Positions 9,302 to 33,931 of a stretch of 64,000 bases of DNA are shown here, one piece after another. Position 1 is the stretch's first letter, and every line of letters begins with the position of its first letter. The notes beneath the pieces were generated by a model. It made no database searches and had not been told where the DNA came from. It saw only the letters and a program-made list of their open reading frames with translations. Position numbers and translations under genes: made by a program. The DNA is from Chiayiivirga sp. GTDB taxonomy: Bacteria; Pseudomonadota; Gammaproteobacteria; Xanthomonadales; Xanthomonadaceae. The DNA lies in the NCBI GenBank assembly GCA_035703435.1, contig DASSYF010000016.1, positions 5,429 to 69,428 on the forward strand, given 5' to 3'.

Positions 9302-9387
9302 GGTATGGGCCTCCGGAAGTCGGGCGGCAAGCATAGCGCGGCGGCTACGCTCCACGGCACGCCGCAAGTCGGCCCGTTCAGCCCTTT

Positions 9388-9489
9388 ATTGATCCGGTCC
9401 TTGTTTCGTAGCAATGGAGCGTGCTCCATTGCCTGCCGAGCAAGCTCGGCAGCTACACCAGGTTTGGGCAATCCGGGGACCGGATCAAT
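9388..9489. repeat. REP doublet (GTAG-type) nested in a 13-bp outer inverted repeat, copy 1
   Basis: ATTGATCCGGTCC ... GTAGCAATGGAGCGTGCTCCATTGCCTGCCGAGCAAGCTCGGCAGCTAC ... GGACCGGATCAAT; second copy at 29760..29859. Confidence 0.75.
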
Positions 9490-9612
9490 GGTGCTGGTGG
9501 CCGTCGATGCTCGCGTGCGCAAACGCCAGAGGGTCGGCACCGTGCCACGGTCGGCCTTGCCGTGCGCGGGCCATGGCCGCACACTGTGGCTCTTTCGCAA
9601 CAAGCCCGAGCC

Positions 9613-29639: not shown

Positions 29640-29759
29640 GCCGCAAGCCCTCGGTCAGTGTCCCGCGCCGGTTGGCGTCGTGGTGTGCGCATCTTCGCCC
29701 AAGTGCGGTGCGCGCAACAGCCGGTTTGTCAGGTATCGATCGATCGGCCGCCCGCCTTG

Positions 29760-29859
29760 TTGATCCGGCCCTTGTCTTGTAGCAATGGAGCTTGCTCCAT
29801 TGACTGCCGAGCAAGCTCGGCAGCTACGCCAGACTCGTACAATTTTCGGGCCGGATCAA
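29760..29859. repeat. REP doublet nested in an outer inverted repeat, copy 2
   Basis: TTGATCCGGCCC ... GTAGCAATGGAGCTTGCTCCATTGACTGCCGAGCAAGCTCGGCAGCTAC ... GGGCCGGATCAA. Confidence 0.75.
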
Positions 29860-29887
29860 TAGTCATCGATGAGCATGTGCGCCGTGC

Positions 29888-31429: not shown

Positions 31430-32878
<1,449 letters not shown>

Positions 32879-32900: not shown

Positions 32901-32928
32901 TTTCCGAGCTGCCTGTGCGGCAGCGTAC
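32901..32928 (-). CRISPR. Isolated type I-F-like CRISPR repeat (variant copy)
   Basis: Minus strand GTACGCTGCCGCACAGGCAGCTCGGAAA: 28 nt, CTGCC-5 nt-GGCAG hairpin, 8-nt GAAA handle; 25/28 identical to 33571..33598. Confidence 0.75.
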
Positions 32929-32974
32929 AAATGGATCTGTCACGTTCGGTGTGGACCAGTCATACACGGGACGC

Positions 32975-33002
32975 TTTACAACCCTTATTGCATCCTTATA
33001 CT
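32975..33002 (+). promoter_or_regulatory. Sigma-70 promoter of the TA operon, probably giving a leaderless toxin mRNA
   Basis: TTTACA(32975)-16 bp-TATACT(32997..33002); toxin ATG 7 bp further, no SD. Confidence 0.65.
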
Positions 33003-33009
33003 TGCGTCC

Positions 33010-33267
33010 ATGAACCGCATTGGCTGGACACCCAAGGCCGCCAAGCAATTGCGCAGGCTGCCAAAGACGGTGCAGGGTGACATCCGCGACGCGGTGCAGG
33101 ACAAGCTGCCGCACTTCCCCAAGTGCAGCGGCGTCAAGGCGCTGGTGAATCATCAGTACGGCTACCGCCTGCGGGTGGGCAATTACCGGGTGCTGTTCAA
33201 CTTTGAGAGCATCATCACGCTGGTTCGCATCGAAGAGGTAGGCAAACGCGATGAACGCACTTACTGA
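33010..33267 (+). CDS. RelE/ParE superfamily toxin (HigB-like, toxin-first)
   Basis: 'IGWTPKAAKQLRRLP...YRLRVGNYRVLF...IEEVGKRDERTY'. Confidence 0.9.
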   Translation: MNRIGWTPKAAKQLRRLPKTVQGDIRDAVQDKLPHFPKCSGVKALVNHQYGYRLRVGNYRVLFNFESIITLVRIEEVGKRDERTY

Positions 33268-33577
33268 CATCCAAACCATCAAGGGTGCGGACGGGCAGCC
33301 GGCATTCGTCGTGGTGCCGTACGCCGAGTACATGCGCCGCTTTGCCCATGAAGAAGGCCTGATTCCACAGGACGTGGTTAGCGCCACGGTGGACGGCGCC
33401 AGCCCGATGAAGGCATGGCGCGAGTACTTGGGGCTCACCCAAGCGGAGGTCGCCGTACGCCTTGGCGTGTCGCAGGCCGCCTACTCGCAGACGGAAGCCG
33501 CTGCGCGCCCTCGCAAGGCCACCGTGGCGCGGGTGGCGGCGGCGCTGCGTCTGGCAGTGGAGCAGCTGGATTTCTGA
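33251..33577 (+). CDS. Xre-HTH antitoxin (HigA-like)
   Basis: 'PAFVVVPYAEY', 'MKAWREYLGLTQAEVAVRLGVSQAAYSQTE'; 17-bp overlap with the toxin. Confidence 0.9.
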   Translation: MNALTDIQTIKGADGQPAFVVVPYAEYMRRFAHEEGLIPQDVVSATVDGASPMKAWREYLGLTQAEVAVRLGVSQAAYSQTEAAARPRKATVARVAAALRLAVEQLDF

Positions 33578-33598
33578 GCTGCCTGTGTGGCAGCGAAC
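33571..33598 (-). CRISPR. Isolated type I-F-like CRISPR repeat (consensus-like copy)
   Basis: Minus strand GTTCGCTGCCACACAGGCAGCTCAGAAA; matches the canonical I-F pattern GTTCACTGCC-N5-GGCAGCT-AGAAA. Confidence 0.85.
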
Positions 33599-33664
33599 TT
33601 TTGCAACCGCGCCTATCCGGGTCGACGGCGCGTTGCATGCGCATGGCCGAATCAGCCACCGAAC

Positions 33665-33931
33665 TCAGGACGAATCATCCCCGACACGTTCGACTCGCTG
33701 GCGAAAGTTCTTCACGTTGTCACCGGCAATGCGAGCGGCCCGCGTGCCTTTGATTTCGTCGATCTTGTGATCACCGTCCGCACCGGTGATCGGTTTGGCC
33801 TTGACGTCGGTTTCGCGTTCAAAGGCGTGCGACTTGTCGGTGTTCCGGTAGTACCGGTAGATCATCCAGTACAAGCCTATGGCACCGGCCGGGCCCATCG
33901 CGAGCAAAGCAAGACTGCCATCGTCACTCAT
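33665..33931 (-). CDS. Small single-TM hypothetical protein
   Basis: 'MSDDGSLALLAMGPAGAIGLYWMIYRYYRNTDKSH.FERET'; 2 bp downstream of the zinc-ribbon gene. Confidence 0.7.
   Translation of the reverse strand: MSDDGSLALLAMGPAGAIGLYWMIYRYYRNTDKSHAFERETDVKAKPITGADGDHKIDEIKGTRAARIAGDNVKNFRQRVERVGDDSS

Follow-up and report, generated by a model that had tools for sequence, protein, structure and literature searches.

A type II toxin-antitoxin cassette that shares its stop codon with a type I-F CRISPR repeat at a locus lacking the CRISPR-Cas system of its sister strains

The final codons of a predicted antitoxin gene in the analysed window (the whole stretch of DNA under study, 64 kb in length) read CAG CTG GAT TTC TGA (33563-33577) and run without a break into GCTGCCTGTGTGGCAGCGAAC. 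The last seven of these bases, TTTCTGA, are also the first seven of a 28-nt repeat, TTTCTGAGCTGCCTGTGTGGCAGCGAAC (R2), with zero spare bases between the end of the ORF and the repeat and with the stop codon (33575-33577) inside R2. This arrangement had been described in an earlier note on the same DNA, and the sequence confirms it. A second copy of the repeat, TTTCCGAGCTGCCTGTGCGGCAGCGTAC (R1), is found 670 bp upstream of R2, and both genes of a toxin-antitoxin (TA) operon are encoded in the interval (Table 1). The locus raises the question of how a gene and a repeat came to share a stop codon, and whether the shared bases are a functional device or a scar. The account considered likely here is that R1 and R2 are the trailer repeats of a type I-F CRISPR array, that the TA cassette became lodged between them through a junction at TTTCTGA, and that the cas genes and the rest of the array were deleted at a later time.

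Table 1. Features of the TA locus and its flanks, in window coordinates. L-numbers denote related loci that are compared in the text.
Feature	Position	Strand	Basis or remark
Tyrosine phenol-lyase gene, conserved left flank	31466..32878	+	Pfam Beta_elim_lyase, E 3e-80
R1, trailer-end degenerate type I-F repeat	32901..32928	-	CRISPR-DR4; four alleles
Stretch of ~44 nt between R1 and TA promoter, holds the left junction	32929..32972		Alignments to TA homologues
Promoter-like site TTTACA-16-TATACT of the TA operon	32975..33002	+	10/12 matches, 0.2 expected
Toxin gene, 85 aa, ParE/RelE superfamily (predicted)	33010..33267	+	Pfam ParE_toxin 27.6 bits, cut-off 23
Antitoxin gene, 108 aa, C-terminal Xre-type HTH (predicted)	33251..33577	+	Pfam HTH_31/HTH_3
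TTTCTGA, common to antitoxin end and R2; putative microhomology junction	33571..33577		T of Asp codon, Phe codon, TGA
R2, penultimate repeat of the ancestral array	33571..33598	-	CRISPR-DR4; array continues after R2 in L210/L215
Deletion junction	33598..33600		L215 homology ends at 33598, L221 homology starts at 33600
GC-rich hairpin downstream of the 88-aa operon	33602..33637		Also upstream of cas1 in cas-bearing strains
88-aa gene, conserved right flank	33665..33931	-	Last in SPFH/436-aa/88-aa operon; cas1 next in sister strains

The gene pair is predicted to form a type II TA system on the basis of its gene architecture and protein families, with the upstream gene as the toxin and the downstream gene as the antitoxin. 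The HTH domain of the antitoxin is similar to that of the 434 repressor. The two genes overlap by 17 nt and are kept together in many genomes; the toxin ORF is intact in all 13 strains in which it could be read, as is the antitoxin ORF wherever it is readable. DNA homology with TA loci elsewhere begins at the -35 box (~32972) and stops exactly at the TGA, which gives a cassette of ~605 bp from promoter to stop codon within an R1-R2 interval of 642 bp. For the stretch of ~44 nt that separates R1 from the promoter, alignment to the upstream DNA of the TA homologues L001-L007 gave no homology, and alignment to L229, the closest homologue from outside the locus, gave an ambiguous similarity only. 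Neither this stretch nor the cassette has a match in phages or plasmids. The stretch may derive from the oldest spacer or from flanking DNA that came in with the TA genes. In metatranscriptome assemblies the TA genes are covered at ~2x only, in data without strand information.

Homologues of the upstream lyase are annotated as tyrosine phenol-lyase, and an AsnC-type regulator gene is also located upstream, with the lyase. The downstream genes on the minus strand encode the 88-aa protein, a 436-aa zinc-ribbon protein and an SPFH protein. The hairpin between R2 and this operon is polymorphic, with a form shorter by 28 nt in some strains.

R1 and R2 are the sole copies of the repeat in the window. 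A search with the 20-nt core at up to three mismatches returned two matches against 0.05 expected, a number reached in 0 of 100 shuffles of the window. The Rfam model CRISPR-DR4 (RF01317) covers both copies over their full length on the minus strand; its gathering score is 35, and R2 reaches 38.8 bits and R1 29.5 bits. Arrays with the canonical form of the repeat, TTTCTGAGCTGCCTGTGCGGCAGCGAAC (reverse complement GTTCGCTGCCGCACAGGCAGCTCAGAAA), were found by scanning metagenome contigs with the core 20-mer, and the arrays fetched contain 1,947 copies at a strict 60-nt period. A period of 60 nt is the geometry of type I-F arrays, in which 28 nt of repeat alternate with 32 nt of spacer. R2 differs from the canonical repeat at one position, in the loop, and R1 at two. 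The 28-nt consensus has the CUGCC/GGCAG stem that is a feature of type I-F repeats, and a hairpin is predicted on both strands; the stem is palindromic, so that transcripts of either strand carry the same stem. R1 and R2 are thus genuine type I-F CRISPR repeats, and the earlier note was right in calling the element at the antitoxin stop codon a CRISPR repeat. The CRISPR-DR4 match places the crRNA sense on the minus strand, opposite to the TA genes, which are therefore antisense to the crRNA. Among close strains R1 occurs in four alleles and R2 in two, and the variety of R1 fits relaxed constraint on a terminal repeat. R2 was also considered as an intrinsic terminator of the TA operon and rejected: no terminator-like site was identified, and the T-run that follows R2 is absent in other strains.

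The comparison made in the earlier note with integron cassette genes, which end inside attC, does not survive this assignment. Integron cassettes are likewise short and have at their boundary a palindromic repeat within which the ORF ends, whereas the repeat at this locus is a CRISPR-DR4 element and the cassette is known from one locus only, with no evidence of mobility. No integrase was found among the neighbouring genes, which are the lyase and the SPFH operon. An integron or attC origin was rejected on the identity of the element as a bona fide CRISPR repeat.

The window does not contain a CRISPR array in the usual sense, as it has no 32-nt spacers, no leader and no cas genes. There are no spacers of ~32 nt at a 60-nt period, only two repeats 670 bp apart; positions 60 nt to either side of R1 and R2, inspected by eye, have no similarity to the repeat, and no third repeat-like sequence occurs in the window at up to six mismatches. 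The large ORFs of the window are housekeeping genes, and tblastn of the whole window with the Cas proteins of a sister-strain contig (L221) gave E values above 0.07 throughout.

The origin of the shared bases was addressed by a survey of 80 loci from reference genomes that encode relatives of the antitoxin. The repeat is absent from 79 of these loci; the one exception, L008, represents the locus of the window in a metagenome-assembled genome that is near-identical. Among 35 full-length homologues the antitoxin ends in LDF-stop in 31, and the exact 3' end GATTTCTGA is found in 15, which makes it the commonest ending, with no repeat there. All 35 have their own stop codon without a repeat. The closest relatives (71-90% identity; from Rhodanobacter, Thermomonas, Aquimonas, Rudaea, Stenotrophomonas and other genera) end in EQLDF-TGA and are followed by DNA that is unrelated to the repeat and to that of one another. 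The nearest outside homologue, P0124 (93% identity), ends in GATTTTTGA with unrelated DNA behind it, in different contexts. TTTCTGA also opens all 1,947 canonical repeats, and it is thus native to both the antitoxin family and the repeat. The earlier note had considered the LDF ending native for this type of antitoxin, which is borne out by the 31 LDF endings and the 15 TTTCTGA endings, but it had also proposed that the repeat supplies the stop codon, which is contradicted by the same comparison: as TTTCTGA is native to the gene family, and outside homologues end in LDF-TGA without any repeat, the repeat does not supply a new stop codon.

The seven-base overlap is identical in every strain that has the locus, including the strains with a full array, and the junction is as precise as had been claimed, with no spare base. 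The chance that a blunt, homology-independent join would produce a match of seven nucleotides is ~4^-7 (6e-5), for which reason microhomology-guided joining, raised as a possibility in the earlier note, is the best explanation. The alignment of homologue 3' ends that the note had suggested as a check showed unrelated DNA downstream, which marks the overlap as a one-off, though one of microhomology rather than of pure coincidence. The overlap is best read as a recombination scar left by a single insertion through a 7-bp microhomology join, and a later slippage deletion between two copies of TTTCTGA could equally have given the same single shared copy. The donor may have matched the repeat at six of the seven positions, in which case the C and the TGA could descend from the repeat; a donor that ended in TTTTTGA, as P0124 does, would leave the protein unchanged. 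Microhomology and slippage junctions in bacteria are similar in that one 7-bp copy is shared and is native to both partners, and differ in that the parental sequences are absent here, so that the event is deduced and not reconstructed. No evidence was found for a function of the overlap, which would have been tolerated because it leaves both partners intact.

The history of the repeats is clarified by sister strains. The exact antitoxin, or variants of 94-98% identity, occurs in many metagenomes, mainly from wastewater, activated sludge and soil, and always between the same lyase and 88-aa gene, with R1, R2 and the 7-nt overlap. On two contigs with an antitoxin of 96% identity (L210 and L215) the order lyase-R1-TA-R2 is followed by further repeats at a 60-nt period, and R2 itself has the same loop variant as in the window and is followed there by spacers at that period. 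The array of L215 comprises 84 repeats with one interruption by an IS630-family transposase, and the end of the contig consists of further non-spacer sequence. A third contig (L221), from the same sample as L210, was found with the 88-aa protein of the window; its gene order is SPFH, 436-aa gene, 88-aa gene, cas1, cas2/3, vapCB, csy1, csy2, csy3, cas6f, leader and array, with the vapCB pair on the opposite strand and with an array orientation that fits L210 and L215. From these contigs we infer the ancestral arrangement lyase(+), R1, TA(+), R2, array, leader, cas6f-csy3-csy2-csy1(-), vapBC, cas2/3-cas1(-) and 88-aa gene(-); L210/L215 and L221 are separate contigs, and joining them rests on their shared flanks, sample and orientation. 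R1 and R2 thus mark the trailer end of a type I-F CRISPR-Cas locus, which sister strains carry intact but which is deleted in the window; the earlier note overlooked this relationship. The TA cassette occupies the oldest spacer position, beside the degenerate terminal repeat.

The locus shares with type I-F CRISPR-Cas loci and relic arrays the sequence, length and hairpin of its repeats and a degenerate terminal repeat and, in the sister strains, the 60-nt period and the orientation relative to cas6f and the leader. It differs from them in that the only 'spacer' of the window is 642 bp long and encodes two proteins on the opposite strand. An insert between two full 28-nt repeats, which in L081 and L211 differ from one another at just one position, is also what would be expected if the TA genes had been integrated by Cas1-Cas2/3 as an aberrant 642-bp spacer, with duplication of the repeat and with the repeat by chance completing a truncated antitoxin, and sister strains have both cas1 and cas2/3 at this locus. 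This origin is nevertheless quite improbable, since integration normally takes place at the leader end and the TA genes are at the trailer end beside the degenerate repeat. The insert is also 20 times longer than a normal spacer, and the native ending GATTTCTGA would have been restored by a chance of ~6e-5 unless microhomology were invoked anyway.

More distant relatives do not have this arrangement. Those with a lyase of 90-91% identity have neither an array nor TA genes after the lyase, a locus with a lyase of 87% identity is not syntenic, and in Thermomonas carbonis the SPFH/436-aa/88-aa operon is present with no lyase, array or TA genes beside it. No relative was found with the array and without the TA genes.

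The boundaries of the missing region were placed by blastn. An alignment of 9.6 kb between the window and L215, at 96.2% identity, breaks off exactly at 33598, where R2 ends, and an alignment with L221, at 91.8% identity, begins at 33600. The latter position corresponds to L221 position 10333, in the intergenic region between cas1 and the 88-aa gene and 66 nt past the stop codon of the 88-aa gene. The DNA absent from the window amounts to at least 15.6 kb, made up of ~9.5 kb of cas region (9.6 kb between the 88-aa stop codon and the first repeat, minus the 66 nt that the window keeps) and at least 6.1 kb of array. Two forms of the cas-less junction occur, a long form in the window, L223 and L224 and a short form in L081, L222 and L227. 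R2 is preceded in L227 by the seven bases ACACCAT, with which the R2-adjoining spacer of L215 also ends, and this match hints at more than one independent loss. An end of the deletion exactly at the repeat boundary is not explained by simple illegitimate recombination. Parsimony argues for loss rather than gain as the direction of change, and gain of a CRISPR-Cas island by recombination in the flanks is conceivable for individual strains. In DNA metagenomes, contigs with a repeat-spacer-repeat structure occur at depths similar to that of this organism and are not assignable to it.

The following sequence of events would account for the locus. The array would have been transcribed on the minus strand with R1 and R2 as its last two repeats, and in a common ancestor of these Xanthomonadales strains the ParE/RelE-Xre cassette would have come to occupy, on the opposite strand, the position of the oldest spacer. 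The right junction would have formed at TTTCTGA, either by a direct microhomology join or by slippage between two copies that removed the intervening DNA, and either route would leave one shared copy with the antitoxin and the repeat both intact. The lineage of the window would later have lost cas1, cas2/3, vapBC and csy1-4, together with the leader and the whole remainder of the array. In the R1-TA-R2 remnant the repeats would be relics with no specific role in this strain today, and the TA genes would act as an ordinary autoregulated type II module, with an mRNA that may end just before or in the 6-bp GC hairpin of the repeat. The TA genes are still intact and are probably self-maintaining as an addiction module with a putative stabilising role, and such an addiction effect could be the reason why the deletions of cas genes and array stopped short of them.

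A more specific form of protection was put forward in the earlier note, namely that the overlap is selected because loss of the repeat removes the stop codon, lengthens and inactivates the antitoxin and thereby releases the toxin. A deletion that reached into the first seven nucleotides of R2 would indeed damage the antitoxin, and all deletions observed stop outside R2. Only 7 of the 28 nt would be protected in this way, however, although the deletion stops at the opposite edge of R2, and the stop codon is the gene's own, as it is in all 35 homologues without a repeat. Recombination between R1 and R2 would moreover remove both genes, that is the whole TA cassette, instead of extending the antitoxin and freeing the toxin. 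Selection of this kind is extremely unlikely, and the overlap is retained here as the scar of an insertion.

In the cas-bearing strains the TA operon and the array converge and the overlap is kept, and a stem of CUGCC/GGCAG, within a hairpin predicted on both strands, stands directly after the UGA of the antitoxin. This is the repeat stem that is bound by Cas6f, an enzyme that would have to tolerate the altered loop and flanks, as it may do. The TA genes might on these grounds guard the CRISPR-Cas system: Cas6f would act on the repeat hairpin or on antisense pre-crRNA and set the output of antitoxin, read-through pre-crRNA would be antisense to the TA genes and would be cut by Cas6f at R2 and R1, and the toxin would fire upon inhibition or loss of CRISPR-Cas. 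Toxins under CRISPR regulation (CreTA, crlRNA) are an established concept. This proposal is improbable, in view of the confinement of the arrangement to one locus, the lack of a mini-array with a 32-nt guide or of a PAM-flanked match to the promoter, and the evident viability of cas-less strains with an intact toxin and antitoxin, which argues that loss of the cas genes does not kill. A protein-based guard in the cas-bearing strains, in which antitoxin synthesis would depend on Cas6f through the hairpin or through pre-crRNA processing, is slightly more improbable still. If the Cas6f-hairpin reading were true, the locus would be a protein-TA counterpart to the RNA-based CreTA guards, and if the TA genes were a guard, the shared stop codon and repeat would be a device for functional coupling and not a scar.

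CreTA and crRNA-like mini-arrays (PsiR-PsiS-PsiR) of type I systems resemble the locus in that repeat-like sequences adjoin a toxin gene in or beside a type I-F locus, and share with it the idea of a toxin tied to the integrity of CRISPR-Cas. They differ from it in their guides of 26-32 nt, whereas the repeats here are 670 bp apart and enclose no such guide, and an ordinary protein toxin is paired with a protein antitoxin. A search for a guide that partly matches the TA promoter next to a PAM was negative, as R2 is adjoined by the antitoxin coding sequence on one side and then by TT, not CC or GG. A CreA or crlRNA mini-array beside the TA genes was rejected for want of a third repeat-like sequence and of guide-sized spacing.

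Related arrangements are already documented: CRISPR-cas loci are known to carry TA genes as cargo and, between cas3 and csy1, regulatory mini-arrays (PMC10097628; bioRxiv 10.1101/2023.03.03.530964; 10.1101/2024.12.27.630466). The cassette resembles the type II TA cargo of CRISPR-cas loci and defence islands in its form, a small ParE/RelE-HTH operon of two genes with a promoter, and plausibly in being an addiction module that outlasts the loss of neighbouring DNA. A vapBC pair between cas2/3 and csy1 is found in L221, L195 and L127. The difference is one of position, as the TA genes here are inside the array between two repeats instead of between cas genes, with the stop codon inside a repeat. 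A limited literature search returned no description of a type II TA that lies between array repeats and whose stop codon falls within one of them. The locus is a modest variation on two known themes, orphan repeats and the carriage of TA genes in CRISPR loci. It would provide a natural example of a TA cassette that lodged in a CRISPR array by means of a few bases of microhomology, and of the loss of at least 15.6 kb of CRISPR-Cas DNA within one species with the persistence of an addiction module and two repeats. It also illustrates that CRISPR repeats standing alone in a genome can be the scars of an immune system that has been lost. Where a pair of repeats surrounds a gene, sister strains should be consulted before a CRISPR array or a new mobile cassette is annotated.

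The possibility that the repeat-flanked TA genes are themselves a mobile cassette, moving between type I-F arrays by recombination between repeats, was weighed with regard to their distribution. On this reading a gene ending within the repeat would be the hallmark of such a cassette. Identical repeats in many arrays of related bacteria would provide portable homology, and an unrelated vapBC pair is found beside a solitary perfect repeat at another locus (L114). Every copy of R1-TA-R2, however, is at the same chromosomal site with the same neighbours, all other homologues lack the repeats, 28 nt is a poor substrate for RecA, and no integrase or attC features were found. The L114 pair is itself the relic of a cas3-vapBC-csy locus. 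Mobility by this route is highly unlikely, and a single insertion at one ancestral locus is preferred.

Solitary repeats were also considered as recurring partners of TA genes, and the idea was rejected, as most of the candidates are chance GC-rich palindromes or the ends of arrays. Two of these candidates (L124 and L101) are arrays with variant loops, a third (L100) has a 533-bp gap without a TA-like ORF, and L114 does not qualify as an independent TA-repeat partner given its origin. All that L114 retains of the system is part of the cas2/3 C-terminus, one perfect repeat and a vapCB pair. Its vapCB genes are 59-72% identical to the pair inside the cas operon of L221, and the locus is a parallel case to that of the window.

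The exact repeat boundary is the end point of the deletion in the window. Comparison of positions 33599-33640 of the window with the cas-less strains that share the locus (L081, L222, L227, L223 and L224) identified at least two junction forms, one long and the other 28 nt shorter. Before R2, one of the two type I-F repeats flanking the toxin-antitoxin (TA) pair, L227 has the 7 nt ACACCAT, with which the spacer adjoining R2 in the sister-strain contig L215 also ends. The junction forms and this match suggest a possible repeated loss of the CRISPR-Cas locus. A transposase gene interrupts the array of the cas-bearing strain, and at the contig end a repeat is directly followed by a sequence that is neither spacer nor leader and is possibly a second insertion (Table).

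The cas operon of the sister strain encodes a vapBC pair, composed of a PIN toxin and a FitA-like RHH antitoxin, and this CRISPR-Cas locus therefore contains two different type II TA modules. Related type I-F systems in L195 and L127 also encode vapBC in this position. Mini-arrays in the cas2/3-csy1 intergenic region were found in L195, L127 and L181, each with a repeat-like sequence, 26-30 nt, and another repeat-like sequence. This region is the known site of creA and crRNA-like regulators (PMC10097628; bioRxiv 10.1101/2023.03.03.530964), which the mini-arrays match in position, and the vapBC promoter is a possible target of theirs.

A second type I-F relic is located on contig L114, where a 101-aa piece of the Cas2/3 C-terminus is accompanied by a vapCB pair that is still intact and by a single isolated repeat of perfect sequence. 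This relic contains neither csy genes nor an array, and it is adjoined by a TonB-dependent receptor gene.

Features located in the window and in related contigs
Feature	Location	Remarks
IS630-family (DDE_3) transposase	L215:10501-11721	Inserted in array; likewise in L210
89 nt sequence after repeat	L215:16435-16523	Likewise in L210
vapBC pair	L221:14906-15606	Between cas2/3 and csy1, sister strain
vapBC pair	L195:5973-6637	Between cas2/3 and csy1
vapBC pair	L127:1-386	Between cas2/3 and csy1
Mini-array	L195:5839-5915	Directly adjoins vapBC promoter
Mini-array	L127:~440-530	Directly adjoins vapBC promoter
Mini-array	L181:5406-5487	
Type I-F locus relic	L114:5320-6420	Contig JACDJA010000023.1
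P0124 antitoxin	L230:2344-2744	Also L231, L233, L236
Direct repeat pair	window 9386-9492 and 29757-29863	Repeat finder; 107 nt, 83% identical, 20 kb apart

Codon 72 of the toxin gene (window 33224) encodes Val in the window and in more distant homologues, and Gly in most sister strains. In some contigs (L230, L231, L233, L236), the antitoxin P0124, 93% identical, is preceded by no more than the final ~60 nt of the toxin gene, and a methyltransferase gene takes the place of the remainder. This arrangement looks like an eroded TA pair with the orphan antitoxin kept.

DNA metagenomes containing this organism (runs X1-X4; window 32901-33598) also contain numerous contigs of the repeat-spacer-repeat type in which this repeat recurs, at depths close to the organism's own. 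These contigs may derive from cas-bearing conspecific strains, a second array of the organism's own genome, or other bacteria.
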